Origin: a virus
Lineage: Duplodnaviria > Caudoviricetes
DNA length: 64,000 bases
Virus record (IMG/VR): IMGVR_UViG_3300031669_005479
Span: 138,815-202,814 of that record
Reading direction: 5' to 3' (one strand)
Position numbers and translations under genes: made by a program. This document shows, one piece after another, positions 39,815 through 59,354 of the stretch. Positions within the stretch are counted from its first letter, which is position 1. Each line of letters starts with the position of its first letter. The notes under the pieces were generated by a model that was given only the letters and a program-made list of their open reading frames with translations, was not told the origin of the DNA and made no database searches.

Positions 39815-39889
39815 ATGAAAAATTTAACACATACACAACCCCAACCGAAACAACAGCCACAAATTGTTGAATGGGGAAGTTATGCTTGA
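39815..39889 (+). CDS. attenuator leader peptide 1 (Gln/Pro/His-rich)
   Basis: MKNLTHTQPQPKQQPQIVEWGSYA; upstream of the Pro/Pro/His/Gln/Gln/Gln tRNAs; contains GAATGGGG complementary to the terminator 5' arm. Confidence 0.85.
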   Translation: MKNLTHTQPQPKQQPQIVEWGSYA

Positions 39890-40750: not shown

Positions 40751-40824
40751 TGGTGATTGAAGCATTAAAGTGATGCGTCAGACTGTGAATCTGAAGAAGA
40801 CGGGTCAGTACCGTCCTTTCACCC
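40751..40824 (+). tRNA. tRNA-His(GTG) with an atypical T-loop
   Basis: TCAGA-CTGTGAA-TCTGA; T-arm GACGG-GTCAGTA-CCGTC. Confidence 0.85.
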
Positions 40825-41056: not shown

Positions 41057-41130
41057 TGTCTCGTGGCGCAATCGGCTAACGCTCCTGACTCTGAATCAGA
41101 TGACTACGGGTTCGAATCCTGTCGAGACAA
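41057..41130 (+). tRNA. tRNA-Gln(CTG)
   Basis: TGTCTCG/CGAGACA, CTGA-CTCTGAA-TCAG, GGTTCGAATCC. Confidence 0.92.
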
Positions 41131-41192
41131 CAATAGTATTTTTTTGCAAAAAGTAGCATTTTTCGATACTTTCCGCAAAATATAACTAATAT

Positions 41193-41277
41193 TGACCTCT
41201 GGTGGAATTGGCTAAACACAACTGTCTTTGAAGCAGTCGTCCGTAAGGATTTGCAAGTTCGAGTCTTGCGAGGTCAA
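41193..41277 (+). tRNA. non-canonical tRNA(TTG), Gln anticodon with a long variable arm
   Basis: TGACCTC/GAGGTCA, ACTGT-CTTTGAA-GCAGT, V-arm TCC-GTAA-GGA, Leu-like D-arm GTGGAATTGGCTAAACAC. Confidence 0.85.
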
Positions 41278-41282
41278 CAAAA

Positions 41283-41405
41283 ATAGGGTAGAATGGTGAG
41301 ACAGCTTCCCCTCGGACTAAAGGCATCAGGATTTGACGATGCCGATGTGAAGCATAGGTCAAGCAATGCATTGACTTAGGTCGAACCAAGAAAATCGAGG
41401 TTATT
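41283..41405 (+). ncRNA. candidate structured non-coding RNA between tRNAs
   Basis: Helices CCTCG/CGAGG, GGCATC/GATGCC and AGGTCAA/TTGACTT; GC-richer than the background. Confidence 0.4.
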
Positions 41406-41408
41406 TAT

Positions 41409-41481
41409 TGCTATGTAGTGTAATGGTTTAGCACAAGTGACTTTGAATCACTTAGTTACAGTTCGAATCTGTACATAGCAA
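41409..41481 (+). tRNA. tRNA-Gln(TTG), canonical
   Basis: TGCTATG/CATAGCA, AGTGA-CTTTGAA-TCACT, GTTCGAATC. Confidence 0.93.
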
Positions 41482-41490
41482 CTATTTTTA

Positions 41491-41572
41491 ATGTGGAAGT
41501 TAAAAAAATTCATTATTTTTACAAAAACATTATGTGGAAGTTAAAAAAATTCATTATTTTTACAAAAACATT
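41491..41572 (+). repeat. perfect 41-bp tandem duplication
   Basis: ATGTGGAAGTTAAAAAAATTCATTATTTTTACAAAAACATT twice. Confidence 0.92.
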
Positions 41573-41575
41573 ATT

Positions 41576-41959
41576 ATGAAGTATAACCTATATCTTGATG
41601 ACTTCCGTGACCCCATAGATTCTGCATATTATCTTAATAATCCTATTTATGAAACACTTCAATGGATTGTTGTTAGAAATTATGATGAATTTATTAAGTG
41701 TGTTATAGAAAATAGTATTCCAGAAGTAATATCCTTCGATCATGACTTGGCAGCAACACATTATGACCATCAATCTAATATAGAATACGATGTATTTACA
41801 GAAAAAACTGGTTATGATTGTGCTAAATGGTTTATTGATTATGTGATTGATAATAAATCGAAACTACCAAAAACAATACTTATTCATTCGATGAATCCTG
41901 CTGGAAGTGCTAATATTAAATCGCTATTTGATAGTTATATTAAATCATTAAATCTGTAA
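41576..41959 (+). CDS. cyclic-phosphate-processing receiver-like domain protein
   Basis: LYLDDFRDP, VVRNYDEF, ISFDHDL, TGYDCAKW, IHSMNPAG. Confidence 0.8.
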   Translation: MKYNLYLDDFRDPIDSAYYLNNPIYETLQWIVVRNYDEFIKCVIENSIPEVISFDHDLAATHYDHQSNIEYDVFTEKTGYDCAKWFIDYVIDNKSKLPKTILIHSMNPAGSANIKSLFDSYIKSLNL

Positions 41960-42932: not shown

Positions 42933-43835
42933 ATGAAAATTACTATTGATTATCTTAAAAAAATTAGGGCTTGTGATGAAGCAATTGCTAGGTTTAACAA
43001 CACACCTGAACTACATTCAGTTAATATTGAAAAATCAACTGAAATTATTGTTGGTGATGTATCATTATTTAATGATATTAATTGGTTAGTTAATAAGTTA
43101 AAAGGTAAACTGCCTGTTAGAAAGTTAACCTATAAAGGTTCTGATGGTTATTGGTCAGAAATGACTTATGATGATAATGGAAATAAGTTAACATATAAAA
43201 ATTCTGATGGTTATTGGTTAGAATATACCTATGATGAAAATGGAAAATTGTTAACCACTAAAAATTCTGATGGTTATTGGTTAGAATATACCTATGATGA
43301 TAATGGAAAATTGTTAACCACTAAAAATTCTGATGGTTATTGGGAAGAAAACACCTATGATGATAATGGAAATAAGTTAACACATAAGAAATCTAATGGT
43401 AGTTGGGAAGAAAACACCTATGATGATAATGGAAATAAGTTAACATATAAAAATTCTGATGGTTATTGGGAAGAAAACACCTATGATGATAATGGAAATA
43501 AGTTAACATATAAAAATTCTAATGGTTATTGGGAAGAAAACACCTATGATGATAATGGAAATAAGTTAACATATAAGAATTCTGATGGTTATTGGGAAGA
43601 AAACACCTATGATGATAATGGAAATTTGTTAACCACTAAAGATTCTAAAGGTTATTCGTGTGAATATACCTATGATGAAAATGGAAATAAATTAACCTAT
43701 AAGGATTCTAAAGGTTATTCGTGTGAATATACGTATGATGAAAATGGAAATAAATTAACCAATAAGGATTCTAATGACAATATTACTGATTACCCTAAAT
43801 TAAAATATGATTTGACTATTTTTGAAATAAAATAA
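42933..43835 (+). CDS. YD-like 22-aa tandem-repeat protein
   Basis: About 10 copies of GYWEENTYDDNGNKLTYKNSD (66-bp unit). Confidence 0.85.
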   Translation: MKITIDYLKKIRACDEAIARFNNTPELHSVNIEKSTEIIVGDVSLFNDINWLVNKLKGKLPVRKLTYKGSDGYWSEMTYDDNGNKLTYKNSDGYWLEYTYDENGKLLTTKNSDGYWLEYTYDDNGKLLTTKNSDGYWEENTYDDNGNKLTHKKSNGSWEENTYDDNGNKLTYKNSDGYWEENTYDDNGNKLTYKNSNGYWEENTYDDNGNKLTYKNSDGYWEENTYDDNGNLLTTKDSKGYSCEYTYDENGNKLTYKDSKGYSCEYTYDENGNKLTNKDSNDNITDYPKLKYDLTIFEIK

Positions 43836-44262: not shown

Positions 44263-44346
44263 GCGGCGTTATACAAGTGGCTAAAGTGGCAAGACCTTCA
44301 ATCTTGTATCGAAAGATTTCGAGGGGTTCGAATCCCCCACGCCGTA
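44263..44346 (+). tRNA. non-canonical tRNA(TTC), Glu anticodon with a long variable arm and C33
   Basis: GCGGCGT/ACGCCGT, CAAGA-CCTTCAA-TCTTG, V-arm ATC-GAAA-GAT, GGTTCGAATCC. Confidence 0.75.
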
Positions 44347-44441
44347 CGAAGTTCAATATGAAATATAGTGGTTTCAGAGGTTTGTTCATATTGAGGTTTA
44401 GTAATTCCAAGGTCGATAATAATGACCAAAAATCTCGCCAT

Positions 44442-44604: not shown

Positions 44605-44679
44605 GCGAGTGTAGCCGAATGGTTAATAGGCAACTGTTTTAGAAACAGAAATTTGCGGGTTCGACTCCCGCCATTCGCA
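44605..44679 (+). tRNA. tRNA-Leu(TAG) lacking the long variable arm
   Basis: GCGAGTG/CATTCGC, CTGT-TTTAGAA-ACAG, short variable loop. Confidence 0.85.
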
Positions 44680-44702
44680 CAAAGGGTTAAAAACAAAACT
44701 AT

Positions 44703-45034: not shown

Positions 45035-45108
45035 GGCTCTGTAGCCGAACTGGAATAGGCAACTGTTTTAAAATCAGAAATTTGTGGGTTCGAGTCCCAC
45101 CAGAGCTA
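45035..45108 (+). tRNA. tRNA-Leu(TAA) lacking the long variable arm
   Basis: GGCTCTG/CAGAGCT, loop TTTAAAA; paralogous to 44605..44679. Confidence 0.83.
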
Positions 45109-45267
45109 CAAATCGTCTGGAGATTCCAGACAAAGTTTTTATAGTAAAATTTATTATTGTTTAATGAATGAAATTGAGTTACATGTTATTGATACTACAG
45201 AACAAAAATGTTTTAAAAAATGTATCTCTGAAAAGTATTTAAATATGATTATTAATATCATTAATAC

Positions 45268-45350
45268 ACGTCCGTAGGCATTGGTAAGCCAAACAGTCTC
45301 CAAAACTGCAACCCGAAAGGGTCTTGCTCGTTCGAATCGAGCTGGACGTG
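45268..45350 (+). tRNA. non-canonical tRNA-Trp(CCA) with a long variable arm and 4-bp anticodon stem
   Basis: ACGTCCG/TGGACGT-G, aCAGT-CTCCAAA-ACTGc, V-arm ACCC-GAAA-GGGT. Confidence 0.87.
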
Positions 45351-45443
45351 CTAATTTTTATAAATTTTGTAACATTTTGAATAGAGTATACGTATCATAA
45401 GAATCATTTAGTATTTTATTAATTTTGTAAAATTTATAAAGTT

Positions 45444-47127: not shown

Positions 47128-47202
47128 CCCCTAGTGACGTAACTTGGCAAACGTGTTCGGCTCAAACCCGAAATTTTGTGGGTTCGAATCCCACTTAGGG
47201 GA
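47128..47202 (+). tRNA. tRNA-Leu(CAA) lacking the long variable arm
   Basis: CCCCTAG/TTAGGGG, TTCGG-CTCAAAC-CCGAA, 5-nt variable loop. Confidence 0.85.
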
Positions 47203-47277
47203 CAACTAATTTAAATTTAATGTTATGAAAAAAATGTATGAAGTTTTGTAAATTGCTCTAATGCAATTGCAAAACAA

Positions 47278-49065: not shown

Positions 49066-50151
49066 ATGGAAATGTTAAAAAAGGTTGATTGGAATTTGTT
49101 GAATACTTATATTGATAATAGTCATATTGTAGCAAATAAACACCCACAATATGATATTTGGATATTGAACTATTCACCAAAGGCACAATCTAATAAATTT
49201 TGGGATATATATACCCTATCTTGTCGTGGATTGGTGATTGATGTCGATGGTAATATATTAGCACGTCCATTTCAAAAATTTAAAAATTATGAAGAGCATA
49301 ATCCATCAGAAATCGATATGTCACAAGAATTTGATATTTTCGAAAAAATGGACGGTTCGTTAATCATAGTATTTTACTATGTGCCACGTATGGAATGGAT
49401 TGTCGCTTCAAGAGGTTCATTCATTTCTGAACAGTGTATGGAAGCAAAGAAAATGATTGATGTAAATATTTACAATAAACTTAAAACTGATTGTACATAT
49501 TTATTTGAAGTAATATATCCAGAAAATAGAATTGTTCTTGACTATGGAAATAGAAGAGAATTGGTATTGCTTACAAGGATTAAAACTGAATCTGGTATGG
49601 AAATGTACTATGATGATTTAGTTGCAACATATTCAAAATACTTTACTGTTGTAAAGAAATACATACTAAATGATATTCATGACCTAAATGATTTAAAAGC
49701 AATTGAAGAGGAAAACAAAGAAGGATTTGTTGTTAGATTCTTAAGTGGATTTAGAGTTAAGGTGAAATTTAGCGAATACATTAGATTGCATGGTATTTTA
49801 ACAAATGTTTCTAATCTAACTGTTTGGGAACACTTAAAAAATAATTATGATTTCGATGATTTGTTGGATAGAGTTCCAGATGAATTCTACAGTTGGCTGA
49901 AAAGAACAGTAAGGATATTACAAGGAGAATTCAATGAAATTGAAAGATTGGCGTTGAAGGATTTTGTAAGAATTTACTATACTAATGGAGTCACAGAACG
50001 CAAAGAATTTGCAATGGAAGCAATTAAAACTGAACATCGTTCAATACTGTTTAGATTGTACGATAAAAGAGGTTATGATGAAATTATTTGGAAACTGGTG
50101 AGACCAATATATTCAAAGCCATTTTCTAAAAATTTTGAAAATATTTCATAA
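49066..50151 (+). CDS. RNA ligase (T4 Rnl1/RnlA-like)
   Basis: CRGLV, RPFQKFKNY, EKMDGS (motif I), ASRGSF, YLFEVI, EGFVV, RVKVK. Confidence 0.9.
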   Translation: MEMLKKVDWNLLNTYIDNSHIVANKHPQYDIWILNYSPKAQSNKFWDIYTLSCRGLVIDVDGNILARPFQKFKNYEEHNPSEIDMSQEFDIFEKMDGSLIIVFYYVPRMEWIVASRGSFISEQCMEAKKMIDVNIYNKLKTDCTYLFEVIYPENRIVLDYGNRRELVLLTRIKTESGMEMYYDDLVATYSKYFTVVKKYILNDIHDLNDLKAIEEENKEGFVVRFLSGFRVKVKFSEYIRLHGILTNVSNLTVWEHLKNNYDFDDLLDRVPDEFYSWLKRTVRILQGEFNEIERLALKDFVRIYYTNGVTERKEFAMEAIKTEHRSILFRLYDKRGYDEIIWKLVRPIYSKPFSKNFENIS

Positions 50152-54263: not shown

Positions 54264-54350
54264 GTACCTATGGCTCAATTGGTAGAGCAACTGGCTTTTA
54301 ACCAGTGGGGTTGCTAACGCACGTTGAGGGTTCGAGTCCCTCTGGGTACA
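54264..54350 (+). tRNA. non-canonical tRNA-Lys(TTT) with a 19-nt variable region
   Basis: GTACCTA/TGGGTAC, ACTGG-CTTTTAA-CCAGT, variable region GGGGTTGCTAACGCACGTT. Confidence 0.88.
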
Positions 54351-54355
54351 CAAAT

Positions 54356-55745: not shown

Positions 55746-58700
55746 ATGACAAATAATATTCTTAAAAGTTTTCCCAAACAAGAGGTGGAAAAAGCAGCAT
55801 TACAATACTTTAAAGGTGATGAGTTAGCAGCAGACGTTTGGATTAAAAAATACTGTTTAAAGGATGAAAATAACTTTTATGAATTGACTCCCGATGACAT
55901 GCATCGAAGAATTGCAAAAGAAATTGCAAGAATTGAAGCAAAATATATAAATCCGCTTTCCGAAGACCAGATTTACGAAACACTAAAAAATTTTAAAAGA
56001 ATTGTGCCACAAGGCAGTCCAATGTCAGGAATTGGTAATAATTTTCAGGTAGTTTCGCTAGGAAATTGTTTTGTTGTTGGTAATGATGCTGATTCATATG
56101 GTGGAATTATTCGAATTGATGAGGAGCAAACACAATTAATGAAGCGTAGAGGTGGTGTTGGTCATGATTTGTCGATGATCAGACCAAATATGACACCAGT
56201 AAAAAACAGTGCAATTACTTCTACAGGTATCGTTCCCTTCATGGAAAGATATTCGAATAGCACAAAAGAGGTTGCACAGGATGGACGACGTGGTGCATTA
56301 ATGTTATCCGTGTCAATAAAACATCCTGATGCAGAATCGTTTATTGATGCAAAATTATTACAGGGAAAAATATCTGGTGCAAATATTTCGGTAAGAATTG
56401 ATGATGAGTTCATGAATTCGGCATTAAATGAAAAATCATATAATCAACAATATCCAATTGATGGTATCGCCAAGTATCAAAAAGAAATTGATGCATCAAA
56501 ACTTTGGAAAAAAATTGTTCACAATGCTTGGAAATCTGCCGAACCTGGTATTCTTTTTTGGGATAAAATTCTAAATGAATCAATACCTTCATGCTATGGT
56601 AAAAAATGGGTTGAAAAAAGCACAAATCCATGTGTCAGTGAAGATACATTAATATTGACAGATGATGGATATCTACCGATCAAAGAATTGGTTGGTAAAA
56701 AGGTTAATGTTTGGAACGGTGAAGAGTTTTCCGAAACCATTCCAGCAATAACTGGATATAATCAAAAAATGATTAAAATAAAATTTTCTGATGGTAGTGA
56801 ATTAAAATGTACACCATATCATAAATTCTACACTTGGAAAGGTTTTGAACGTGATGGAAAGGTAATAAAAAAGAACGGAAATGAACTTATTGTTGGTGAT
56901 AAGTTGGAAAAATATAAATTTCCAAAATTAAAACGAGATTTGAGCACTGGCCATCATATTTACATATCGACTGATAATATTGGCAATGGCTACATAACAA
57001 ATAAGGAATTTTATACTGCAGGTTTTTTTGCTGGTGACGGACATATTAAAAGAAATGATGAGTATATGATTTCATTATATGGAGTAAAAAAAGAATTAAT
57101 ACCATATTTGGAAATTATTGGTAATGAATCTGAGGATATTGCTAACGATAAAATTACGGTAAGAATAAATTTACCAGAATATTTTAAATTTAGTCCTCAA
57201 AACATACCAATTAAAAAAATAATACCAATCTATGAAAAGGGGATGCCTGAATTAGATGTGTTGAATTGGTTGGCTGGTTTAATCGATTCTGACGGTTCAC
57301 GTAATTCTGATAAAGGGTCAATATCAATTTCTTCAATAGATAAAAACTTCTTAATGCAAATTAAACTAAATATATTAAATACGTTTGGTATTAATGGAAG
57401 TGTTATTGATGAAAAGAATGGCGGTATTAAGAAAATTAAGGGAATTGAATATGAAACAAATAAATCATATAGACTAATAATTAGCGCACATAATGTTAAA
57501 AAATTATATGATTTAGGTTTAAGAACACATAGAGTTAAAATCGATGATGTTAATCCAAATCGTGATGCATCTCGATTTATAACTGTTGAATCAATTGAAT
57601 CTATCGATGATGCAGACGTTGTATATTGTTTTACTGAAGAAAAACGTGGGAGAGGTTGCTTTAATGGCGTGGTTACTGGACAATGTGGCGAATTGCCGTT
57701 GCCACCATATGATTCATGTAGATTGGTGTGCATGAATTTATATGGTTACGTTGTAAATCCTTTTACAGTAAATGCGTATTTTGATGAGGAAGCATTTAGT
57801 AGAGATGTACAGATTGCTATGAGGTATATGGATGATATTGTAGACCTAGAAGTTGAAAAAATCGATACTATTTTATTGAAAATTCAATCCGACCCAGAAT
57901 CAGACGAAATTAAGTTAGTTGAAAAGAATTTATGGGAAAAAATTCGTGGTATGGCACTTGAAGGTAGGAGAACTGGCTTAGGCGTTACTGCAGAAGGAGA
58001 TATGCTTGCCGCACTTGGCTTACGATATGGTACAGAAGAGGCGACAATATTCAGTGAAAATGTGCATAAGGGACTTAAATTAAACGCATATCGCTCATCA
58101 GTTACAATGGCTAAAGAACGTGGTGCTTTTCCAATTTATAATCATAATTTAGAATCAAGCAATCCGTTTATATTAAGAATTTTAGAAGAAGACCCACAAT
58201 TACATTACGATATGTGGACTTATGGTCGTAGAAATATTGCACTGCTAACTATTGCACCAACTGGTAGTGCAAGCTTAATGACACAAACAACATCAGGCAT
58301 TGAACCAGCATTTTTACCTGTTTATATGCGTAGACGTAAGATTAATCCACAAGAAAAGGATGTTCGTGTGGATTTTATTGATGATGAGGGTATTTCATGG
58401 ATGCAATATCCAGTATTTCATCATAAGTTTGAAATATGGTTAGAAGTTGAGGGATATGATGTTAATGTTGTTAAAACCATGAGCAAAGAACAACTTGACG
58501 AAATTGTGAAGAAATCACCCTATTATAAAGCAACATCAAATGACGTTGATTGGGTGATGAAAGTTATAATGCAAGGTAAAATACAAAAACATATTGACCA
58601 TAGCATTTCTGTTACGGTTAATCTTCCAGAATCGGTGAGTGAAGAAACTGTTGCAAAAGTATATGAAACTGGTTGGAAATCTGGTTGCAAAGGCATTACT

Positions 58701-59354
58701 GTTTATCGTGATGGTAGTAGAAATGGTGTACTTGTTGGTGCAGAAGATAATAAAAAAGAAAATTTTCACGAGAATCACACACCCAAAAGACCAAAAAGAT
58801 TGAAGGGTGAAATTCACAAATTTCAAAATAATTTGGAAAAATGGATTGCCGTTGTTGGCCTACGTGATGGTAGACCATATGAAATTTTCACTGGAAGACT
58901 TGAAAATGGATTAAGTAAATTACCTCCAAACATTAAAGACTGTGAAGTTGTTAAACAAATATTTGAAGTAGAGGAAATGGATGAGGATGGTAAAATGATT
59001 AAAGTTAGAAAAAAAAGATACGATATTGAATATATTGATAGTAATGGCGAAAAACAAATACATACTGGTTTAAACCACGCATTTAATCCTGAATATTGGA
59101 ACTATGCAAAACTTTTTTCAGGTGTACTTCGACATGGTATGCCAATTATTTATGTCTATCAACTAATTAATTCTATGAATCTAAATAGTGATCATTTGAA
59201 TACGTGGAAAAATGGCGTTGCACGTACAATAAAAAAGTACATTAAGGACGGTGAAAAAATTGAAGGTAAATGTCCTGAATGTGGTAGTGAACATTTAGAA
59301 TTTAAAGAGGGATGTTTAATCTGTATGTCCTGTGGTAGTTCAAAATGTAACTAA
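55746..59354 (+). CDS. nrdJ: class II (adenosylcobalamin-dependent) ribonucleotide reductase with intein
   Basis: SLGNCFV, RRGGVG, TNP/CGE active site split by the intein, RRTGLG, TIAPTG, KGITVYRDGS, C-terminal CPECG...CMSCG. Confidence 0.92.
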   Translation: MTNNILKSFPKQEVEKAALQYFKGDELAADVWIKKYCLKDENNFYELTPDDMHRRIAKEIARIEAKYINPLSEDQIYETLKNFKRIVPQGSPMSGIGNNFQVVSLGNCFVVGNDADSYGGIIRIDEEQTQLMKRRGGVGHDLSMIRPNMTPVKNSAITSTGIVPFMERYSNSTKEVAQDGRRGALMLSVSIKHPDAESFIDAKLLQGKISGANISVRIDDEFMNSALNEKSYNQQYPIDGIAKYQKEIDASKLWKKIVHNAWKSAEPGILFWDKILNESIPSCYGKKWVEKSTNPCVSEDTLILTDDGYLPIKELVGKKVNVWNGEEFSETIPAITGYNQKMIKIKFSDGSELKCTPYHKFYTWKGFERDGKVIKKNGNELIVGDKLEKYKFPKLKRDLSTGHHIYISTDNIGNGYITNKEFYTAGFFAGDGHIKRNDEYMISLYGVKKELIPYLEIIGNESEDIANDKITVRINLPEYFKFSPQNIPIKKIIPIYEKGMPELDVLNWLAGLIDSDGSRNSDKGSISISSIDKNFLMQIKLNILNTFGINGSVIDEKNGGIKKIKGIEYETNKSYRLIISAHNVKKLYDLGLRTHRVKIDDVNPNRDASRFITVESIESIDDADVVYCFTEEKRGRGCFNGVVTGQCGELPLPPYDSCRLVCMNLYGYVVNPFTVNAYFDEEAFSRDVQIAMRYMDDIVDLEVEKIDTILLKIQSDPESDEIKLVEKNLWEKIRGMALEGRRTGLGVTAEGDMLAALGLRYGTEEATIFSENVHKGLKLNAYRSSVTMAKERGAFPIYNHNLESSNPFILRILEEDPQLHYDMWTYGRRNIALLTIAPTGSASLMTQTTSGIEPAFLPVYMRRRKINPQEKDVRVDFIDDEGISWMQYPVFHHKFEIWLEVEGYDVNVVKTMSKEQLDEIVKKSPYYKATSNDVDWVMKVIMQGKIQKHIDHSISVTVNLPESVSEETVAKVYETGWKSGCKGITVYRDGSRNGVLVGAEDNKKENFHENHTPKRPKRLKGEIHKFQNNLEKWIAVVGLRDGRPYEIFTGRLENGLSKLPPNIKDCEVVKQIFEVEEMDEDGKMIKVRKKRYDIEYIDSNGEKQIHTGLNHAFNPEYWNYAKLFSGVLRHGMPIIYVYQLINSMNLNSDHLNTWKNGVARTIKKYIKDGEKIEGKCPECGSEHLEFKEGCLICMSCGSSKCN
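56631..57683 (+). mobile_element. Gln-terminal LAGLIDADG intein (351 aa) at the RNR active-site Cys
   Basis: Starts CVSEDT, ends GVVTGQ followed by Cys; motifs AGFFAGDG and LAGLIDSDG. Confidence 0.92.

Follow-up and report, generated by a model that had tools for sequence, protein, structure and literature searches.

Textbooks restrict the long variable arm of bacterial tRNAs to tRNA-Leu, tRNA-Ser and tRNA-Tyr, together with tRNA-Sec. The long-arm tRNAs treated in reviews are those for Ser, Leu, Tyr and Sec, selC*, and the allo-tRNAs only (PMC7609411, PMC9976931, PMC5389517). A73, A15-U48 and G18G19 are determinants read by E. coli LeuRS, the anticodon being ignored by the enzyme, and A73 is the one Leu determinant that is essential in every system studied (PMC9976931). 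In tRNA-Pyl, a longer variable arm can sterically block one protein while another still charges the tRNA (PMC7609411). The defence nucleases PtuAB and Septu cut tRNA-Tyr in its variable loop, and the tRNA-Tyr of phage T5 escapes them by having a different variable loop (PMC13096335, PMC11555353); phage tRNAs also vary their anticodon loops, avoiding nucleases (PMC10264068). We found no description in the literature of class I phage tRNAs rebuilt with long arms.

In our study, we analyzed a phage tRNA that has the anticodon of glutamine (UUG) and, like a class II tRNA, a long variable arm. With class II tRNA-Leu, tRNA-Tyr and tRNA-Ser it has in common a five-arm cloverleaf, a 3-bp D-stem with a purine-purine 13-22 pair, an arm of Leu/Tyr size and certain D-arm strings, but its anticodon is not that of Leu, Ser or Tyr, and in its acceptor end and the statistics of its discriminator it follows Gln. 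The allo-tRNAs and selC* differ from it in their 8/4 or 9/3 acceptor/T branches, whereas the long tRNA-Gln has a 7-bp acceptor stem and a 5-bp T stem, both covarying; theirs is mostly a G73 or U73 that points to Ser identity, with missense or nonsense suppression, whereas the acceptor end described here matches its own anticodon (PMC5389517). The T5 tRNA-Tyr that faces retron-Eco7 PtuAB and Septu offers a likeness by analogy, being a phage copy of a host tRNA altered in the variable or anticodon loop (PMC13096335, PMC11555353, PMC10264068), and RNA-repair genes lie near the long tRNA-Gln; the T5 case, however, concerns an existing long arm with a different sequence, and the present one a whole arm added to a class I tRNA. 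What is new here is the long-arm Gln family and the test of its identity by the acceptor signature.

Structure and genomic setting of the long-arm tRNA-Gln(UUG)

The window, that is, the whole stretch of 64,000 nucleotides that we analyzed, makes up the final 64 kb of an IMG/VR phage contig that is 202,814 nt long, has about 30% G+C and is estimated to be 66% complete. ARAGORN identified 18 tRNA genes in the window, arranged in several clusters. The features around the long-arm gene are the following:

39815..39889, forward strand: leader ORF of 24 codons ahead of the Pro/His/Gln tRNA block, read from the sequence
41057..41131, forward strand: ordinary tRNA-Gln(CUG) of class I shape, upstream neighbour of the long tRNA-Gln(UUG) (ARAGORN)
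41193..41277, forward strand: tRNA-Gln(UUG) with a long variable arm, positions 1-73, 85 nt (ARAGORN, Rfam, covariance model R1, minimum-free-energy fold)
41409..41482, forward strand: ordinary class I-shaped twin, tRNA-Gln(UUG), with the same anticodon (ARAGORN; Rfam, 67 bits)
41576-41959: cyclic-phosphate-processing receiver-domain protein cREC_REC (PF20274, 1.7e-21), the next gene to the long tRNA-Gln locus
49066-50151: RNA ligase of the T4 Rnl1/gp63 type (PF09511, phrog_562)

The earlier note had described a Leu-like tRNA with a UUG anticodon at 41193-41277, and its coordinates and features proved exact by ARAGORN, Rfam, folding and comparison with 25 homologues. ARAGORN calls a tRNA-Gln(ttg) of 86 nt at 41193-41278, one base beyond the discriminator; the Rfam tRNA model (RF00005) scores 51 bits at 41193-41277 against a gathering score of 29, and a covariance model of the family (R1) scores 93 bits. 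The five-arm cloverleaf was recovered unaided as the minimum-free-energy fold (RNAfold), and the gene fits RF00005 by its cloverleaf, by its T-loop and G18G19, by an acceptor/T branch of the 7/5 type and by a score above threshold; all its helices covary. Its parts are as follows:

41193..41199, forward strand: 5' strand of the acceptor stem, UGACCUC, pairing with GAGGUCA at 41270-41276 (U1-A72, G2-C71, A3-U70)
41202..41219, forward strand: D-arm, GUGG-AAUUGGCUAA-ACAC, with three Watson-Crick pairs plus G13.A22; A15, G18 and G19 present
41221..41237, forward strand: anticodon arm, ACUGU-CUUUGAA-GCAGU, with UUG at 41228-41230, C32, A37 and A38
41238..41252, forward strand: variable region of 15 nt, C44 followed by GUCC-GUAA-GGAU and UU; hairpin at 41239-41250, 4 bp, with a GUAA cap
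41253..41269, forward strand: T-arm, GCAAG-UUCGAGU-CUUGC (sequence and covariation)

U8 and G9 join the acceptor stem to the D-arm, whose full string as quoted in the earlier note, GTGGAATTGGCTAAACAC, was located at 41202-41219, and A26 follows it. The last U of the variable region (U48) is able to pair with A15. The discriminator, A73, is at 41277; no CCA is encoded 3' of it, and the next bases are CAA. The UUG anticodon falls within the YUG of bacterial tRNA-Gln, and the variable region, 15 nt with a hairpin, departs from the 4-5-nt loop of the class I shape.

The genes for the cREC_REC protein and the Rnl1-type RNA ligase are interleaved with the tRNA clusters, which suggests a capacity for tRNA repair. 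The leader ORF has five Gln codons (four CAA and one CAG). Several other elements were observed in the window. A tRNA missed by ARAGORN lies at 40753-40823 (Rfam, 36 bits; anticodon loop CUGUGAA) and is probably a tRNA-His(GUG), as the Pro-His-Gln order of relatives would predict. The spacer of about 120 nt between the long and short Gln(UUG) genes (41283-41405) has a higher GC content, is rich in helices and gave no Rfam match at E<=1; it is absent from the closest relatives, and the two genes are 6 nt apart in L012. A 43-nt AT-rich unit (aatgtggaagttaaaaaaattcattatttttacaaaaacatta) occurs in two tandem copies at 41483-41575, directly upstream of the cREC_REC gene. A 300-aa ORF with RHS repeats (PF05593) lies between two tRNA clusters at 42933-43835; C-terminal toxin domains are frequent in RHS-repeat proteins. 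At 55746-59354, an intein that carries a LAGLIDADG homing endonuclease splits a ribonucleotide reductase large subunit (PF02867, PF14890, PF14528). HDV-like theta ribozymes are known to adjoin phage tRNAs (PMC10879173); with Rfam at E<=1 over the 38-56 kb interval, tRNA models alone fitted the long tRNA-Gln locus, and no riboswitch or ribozyme adjoined it. A scan of 39.7-42.1 kb for sigma-70 promoters and terminators gave nothing above shuffles, the sigma-70 model being uninformative for a Bacteroidota-type phage. Among the sequencing runs listed for the sequence, none was an RNA run: the DNA runs are soil and wastewater metagenomes, and two runs labelled RNA-Seq, with short contigs only, are probably DNA.

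Conservation of the family in related phages

Relatives were first identified through the neighbouring cREC_REC gene (PF20274), which led to 25 related phage loci, five of them with a Gln(UUG) tRNA of 84-86 nt at the same place. An exact 23-nt search of IMG/VR gave no match, and the family, reached by synteny and by three degenerate DNA patterns, was enlarged to 25 distinct sequences on 26 IMG/VR contigs. The bait pattern gave 41 matches in 185,579 genomes (one per prokaryote species), only two of which are long tRNA-Gln. Each of the two belongs to a phage-type tRNA array that had been binned into a MAG, and for one of them the contig is the 362,763-nt one also present in IMG/VR. No member was found in the cellular sequence of these species genomes, and the long-arm tRNA-Gln family is thus phage-only. 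The searches based on the D-arm found no other anticodon on the long-Gln scaffold, neither CUG nor a suppressor; their remaining matches were ordinary Ser, Tyr and Leu tRNAs, long Arg tRNAs and three short Gln tRNAs.

With the covariance model R1, for which 17 members were used, scores of 81-108 bits were obtained across the family. In the structural alignment of the 25 members, all five helices are retained, 96% of the cells are paired and 20 of the 25 pairs have double-sided changes, a covariation that none of 500 shuffles matched, and slid controls fall to about 40% paired. Double-sided changes affect six of the seven acceptor pairs and three of the four pairs of the extra-arm helix, and the D-stem pairs 11-24 and 12-23 covary between two D-arm subtypes. 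The anticodon loop CUUUGAA is invariant in all 25 sequences, including 11 retrieved without the loop as bait, although invariance there and in the D-arm is partly by construction, some members having been fished with patterns that fix one or the other. The extra-arm hairpin is kept in every member (25/25) with one design, an unpaired base, a stem of 3-5 bp, a loop and UU, for an arm of 12-17 nt; its loops are GNRA in ten, UUCG in three and other sequences in 12. Because the loops swap between stable tetraloop types, this pattern points to selection on the hairpin as such rather than on its loop sequence. We also considered the loop as a decoy anticodon and rejected it: the GNRA, UUCG and mixed loops hold no copy of the Gln anticodon loop, and the CAA present in seven of the 25 is not conserved. 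These data establish the tRNA of the window as a real, conserved and structurally constrained tRNA with a Gln-type acceptor end and anticodon.

In related contigs, the usual order is Pro/His repeats followed by Gln(CUG) and then by the two Gln(UUG) genes, the long one before the short one, and the long and short Gln twins stand side by side in about 19 of the 22 contigs in which both were visible; near the long gene of at least two contigs (L011 and L034) there is no short UUG twin, and other relatives (L002-L008) have short Gln tRNAs only. This last observation would suit a cognate Gln tRNA whose arm has no function, either a tolerated insertion or a scar of recombination with a class II gene, serving as a second CAA decoder in an AT-rich genome. 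The D-arm found also in Ser, Tyr and Leu tRNAs would fit such an origin, as a hint that genes of the tRNA array have recombined, and so would a codon usage in which CAA is four times as common as CAG, so that extra UUG copies would be useful. A useless arm should decay, however, and the hairpin has been kept through 25 diverged sequences by compensatory changes and swaps of tetraloop type; the regular pairing of long and short twins argues against it as well, as does the recurrence of the same conversion for many amino acids and its reversal for Leu and Ser (see below). We therefore regard a functionless arm as unlikely.

Identity marks of Gln and Leu

The reading of the tRNA as a charging substrate for LeuRS, with Leu inserted at CAA and the mistranslation deliberate or tolerated, or with a dual Gln/Leu identity, has several points in its favour. 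The window copy has A73, A15-U48, G18G19, the G13.A22 D-stem and a 15-nt extra arm of Leu size; its D-arm string is found, besides ten Gln tRNAs, in one phage tRNA-Leu(UAA); the hairpin core CCGUAAGG is the same as in the Leu(AAG) and Leu(CAA) tRNAs of a related phage; and an enzyme that ignores the anticodon, as E. coli LeuRS does, would not be deterred by UUG, which lies outside the NAG or YAA of tRNA-Leu. With such marks, the window copy may be leucylated to some extent.

The weight of these marks changes when ordinary tRNA-Gln is taken into account. With the short phage tRNA-Gln as query we found three cellular Bacteroidota tRNA-Gln, which have a UGUC(C/U) acceptor start, U1-A72, G2-C71, A73, U48 and the D-arm UGGUGUAAUUGGCAACAC, and which also carry A15, G18G19, the AAUUGG D-loop and A20a. 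Since these three genes carry them, A73, A15-U48 and the AAUUGG loop are ordinary tRNA-Gln traits in Bacteroidota, and A73, A15, U48 and G18G19 cannot be enough for LeuRS in that phylum. Of the Leu features listed by the earlier note, the D-arm and the extra arm are indeed class II-like, but A73 is normal for a tRNA-Gln of Bacteroidota. The long tRNA agrees with the Bacteroidota tRNA-Gln(UUG) in its anticodon, U1-A72, G2-C71, A73, A15/U48, the T-arm and most of the acceptor stem, and it stands in the same gene block as ordinary tRNA-Gln; it departs from it in the hairpin of its 15-nt variable region (4-5 nt in Bacteroidota), in G13.A22 (U13-A22) and in C32/A37/A38 (U32/G37/U38).

For a comparison of identity, the variable region and the anticodon loop were removed from 299 distinct tRNAs. 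The 26 nearest neighbours of the window tRNA are all tRNA-Gln, with identities of 0.87-0.88 to other long Gln, 0.75-0.79 to short Gln(UUG) and 0.68-0.71 to cellular Gln; the best Leu reaches 0.68. The discriminator (N73) and the ends of the acceptor stem are distributed as follows:

Long Gln, n=25: N73 is A in 17, G in 4 and U in 4; the 1-72 pair is U-A in 16, A-U in 6, wobble or mismatch in 3 and never G-C; G2-C71 in 19; U3-A70 in 19
Short Gln, n=55: N73 is A in 40, G in 10 and U in 5; the 1-72 pair is U-A in 46; G2-C71 in 44
Long Leu, n=23: A73 in 23/23; position 1 is G or C in all 23
Long Ser, n=27: G73 in 22; G1-C72 in 24
Long Tyr, n=10: A73 in 9; G1-C72 in 8

The U1-A72, G2-C71 and A73 of the window copy are those of a tRNA-Gln, and the family distribution equals that of short Gln. 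The window copy does have the A73 that LeuRS requires, but eight of the 25 family members have G73 or U73, against A73 in 50 of 51 phage tRNA-Leu overall; since about a third of its members are without the essential A73, LeuRS is not what holds the long-Gln family together. A weak 1-72 pair, which is the condition of Gln, is common to all members, in opposition to the G or C at position 1 of every long Leu.

Charging by SerRS or TyrRS through the long arm can be weighed with the same figures. Phage Ser and Tyr tRNAs have exactly the D-arm of the commoner subtype (UGGCAGAAUGGYUAWUGCA), C11-G24 included, and the extra arm itself would be the element recognized. Nevertheless, G73 is present in only four of the 25 members, and the 1-72 pair is never the G-C found in 24/27 Ser and 8/10 Tyr. 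A tRNA-Ser would be expected to have G73, G1-C72 and a long-stem arm without unpaired 3' bases, where the window copy shows A73, U1-A72 and a stem of 4 bp with UU after it; across the family, the arm of 12-17 nt with a 3-5-bp stem and two unpaired U differs from the Ser arms of 18-20 nt of a complete relative, whose longer stems reach the T-stem. For TyrRS, the anticodon is without the G34 and A36 of Tyr. Charging by either enzyme is hardly credible.

Region by region, short Gln is the closest match for the acceptor stem and T-arm, and class II tRNAs are the closest for the D-arm, the D-arm figure being inflated by the use of D-arm strings as bait. On this ground, the long tRNA-Gln reads as a mosaic, with Gln ends and anticodon placed on a class II core.

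Meaning of CAA and charging of the tRNA

The 189 ORFs of the contig contain 1483 CAA and 379 CAG codons, CAA making up 2.4% of the phage's own codons. In tblastn comparisons with related phages, CAA positions were aligned with Q (42%), E (13%), K (8%), N (5%) and R (5%), and not with L, I or V, whereas the Leu codons TTA, CTA and TTG were aligned with L, I, F, V and M; 40 of 99 CAG positions were aligned with CAA in relatives. CAA is Gln in the phage proteins. A UUG tRNA charged with Leu would strike 2.4% of the phage codons, at polar, Gln-like positions, and would damage the phage proteins. The possibility raised by the earlier note, that the tRNA would misread CAA if it were charged with Leu, is opposed by the Gln-type acceptor stem, the family members without A73 and the behaviour of CAA, and we consider charging by LeuRS, alone or with a dual identity, very improbable. 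Its other proposal, that the gene serves as a Gln tRNA, is supported by the acceptor and discriminator statistics, the nearest neighbours and the usage of CAA.

The contig and four complete relatives (322-365 kb) yielded no catalytic domain of Glu/GlnRS (PF00749) or Leu/Ile/ValRS (PF00133), and the charging of the long tRNA-Gln must therefore fall to a host enzyme. We found glnS in two Bacteroidales genomes but in none of three other MAGs, and of a sample of 81 Bacteroidota genomes 33 have it; with this patchy distribution, the direct and the transamidation routes of charging are both possible. In the complex of GlnRS with its tRNA, the variable loop faces the solvent. Since GlnRS, a class I synthetase, binds the acceptor stem on its minor-groove side (PMC7373986), and given that orientation of the loop, its tolerance of an added arm is plausible. 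Judged by its identity marks, the long tRNA is likely charged with Gln.

Two shapes for one anticodon in related phages

The long tRNA-Gln is accompanied by other tRNAs whose shape does not correspond to their anticodon:

44263-44347: long-arm Glu(UUC), 85 nt
45268-45351: long-arm Trp(CCA), 84 nt; its best Rfam match is tRNA-Sec, at 37 bits, below threshold
54264-54351: long-arm Lys(UUU), 88 nt, its variable region 19 nt long
89036-89122 of the genome contig, complement: long CAU tRNA, 87 nt, with a U1.U72 mismatch
44605-44680, 45035-45109 and 47128-47203: class I-shaped tRNAs with the Leu anticodons UAG, UAA and CAA, each with a 5-nt variable loop and A73

The first two of these short Leu tRNAs keep the G13.A22 D-stem; the short Leu tRNAs of the window represent the reverse conversion, in which the long arm was lost. 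Relatives have a Ser(UGA) of 71 nt, also a short form, and the complete relative of 362,763 nt has 55 tRNAs, with long Pro, Gln, Glu, Val, Trp, Cys, Thr and Met and short Leu (UAG, CAG, UAA) and Ser (UGA). Most shape-switched tRNAs have a twin of the usual shape. For Trp, Glu and Pro, the acceptor signature of the short twin recurs in the long tRNA, and the long Trp arms are GAAA-capped with covarying stems. Because long class I and short Leu and Ser forms both occur and acceptor signatures are kept, shape seems to have diversified in both directions with the identity marks unchanged. The long-arm species include six of eight class I and five of nine class II amino acids by synthetase class, a bias too weak to use.

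A broader proposal would be that these giant phages keep two architectural editions of their tRNAs, with the class I tRNAs (Gln, Glu, Lys, Trp, Pro, Val, Met, Cys and Thr) armed, those for Leu and Ser stripped and all identities kept, such that the decoder of the other shape survives a host nuclease or modifier or a host-shutoff enzyme of the phage; the long tRNA-Gln would be the Gln member of this system. We regard this generalization as doubtful.

Two further tRNAs of the relatives were recorded. Contigs L007, L009, L026, L033 and others (e.g., 4103-4198 of L026) have a tRNA-Pro(UGG) of 95-97 nt with a 25-nt variable arm forming a long helix with CAAAGG-like loops; it heads the Pro/His/Gln block in many relatives and is absent from the window. 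The complete 362,763-nt relative (G002; L097-L115) has, at 237313-237385, a 73-nt amber-suppressor tRNA with the anticodon CUA, a hint that some members of the phage group recode TAG. This relative is filed in GTDB as a contig of a Candidatus Paceibacterota MAG, probably a binning error.

Possible role of the added arm

Taking the structure, the family and the identity marks together, we consider it reasonably probable that the long tRNA is a cognate Gln tRNA rebuilt in class II shape, one of a phage-only family, whose arm acts as a change of shape. It would be a functional elongator that reads CAA and probably CAG too by wobble, and the host would charge it as a Gln tRNA, by GlnRS or by a non-discriminating GluRS followed by GatCAB. 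In place of the 4-5-nt variable loop it would present a short stable hairpin (3-5 bp, with GNRA, UUCG or other caps), a steric change by which it may escape a protein, of the host or of the phage, that reads or cuts the variable-loop side of class I tRNAs, while the synthetase, EF-Tu and the ribosome would still accept the long form.

Escape from a tRNA-directed protein is a tentative part of this explanation, drawn by analogy. We know of no nuclease that targets tRNA-Gln in Bacteroidota. The steric role is favoured because the arm is unspecific in sequence and a twin of normal shape is retained; because the anticodon loop departs from that of the host and nucleases that cut the variable loop exist; and because the lengthening of an arm can exclude one protein, as in tRNA-Pyl, and the Rnl1 ligase and cREC_REC genes lie among the tRNA clusters.

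A non-translational role has also to be considered, in which the long tRNA would be a decoy or a regulator in tRNA form, for instance by soaking up a host tRNA nuclease or synthetase or by serving as the sensor RNA of a proposed leader-peptide control. The block is preceded by a leader ORF rich in Gln, Pro and His, the twin of normal shape could take care of decoding, and an overexpressed phage tRNA can blunt tRNA-cutting defences (PMC13096335). A decoy, however, would not need the conserved CUUUGAA loop, Gln-type acceptor end, T-loop and G18G19, which are what a charged tRNA needs, and the contigs without a nearby short UUG twin are difficult to reconcile with decoding by the twin. We consider this role improbable, and the cognate Gln tRNA with a changed shape remains our preferred reading.

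Implications for tRNA classes

Our results present the long variable arm as a portable module, which in these phages has been added to Gln and to many other tRNAs, apparently without a change of identity, and removed from Leu and Ser. For genome annotation they carry a warning: in a phage, a long arm combined with an anticodon other than those of Leu, Ser or Tyr is no sign of mistranslation. If charging with Gln is confirmed, a switch of class is tolerated by GlnRS (or by GluRS and GatCAB), by EF-Tu and by the ribosome. The added arm would then be a candidate new escape route from tRNA-targeting immunity, these tRNAs would offer ready-made scaffolds for the engineering of orthogonal or tagged tRNAs, and the family would let one ask, in a natural setting, what purpose the tRNA classes serve.
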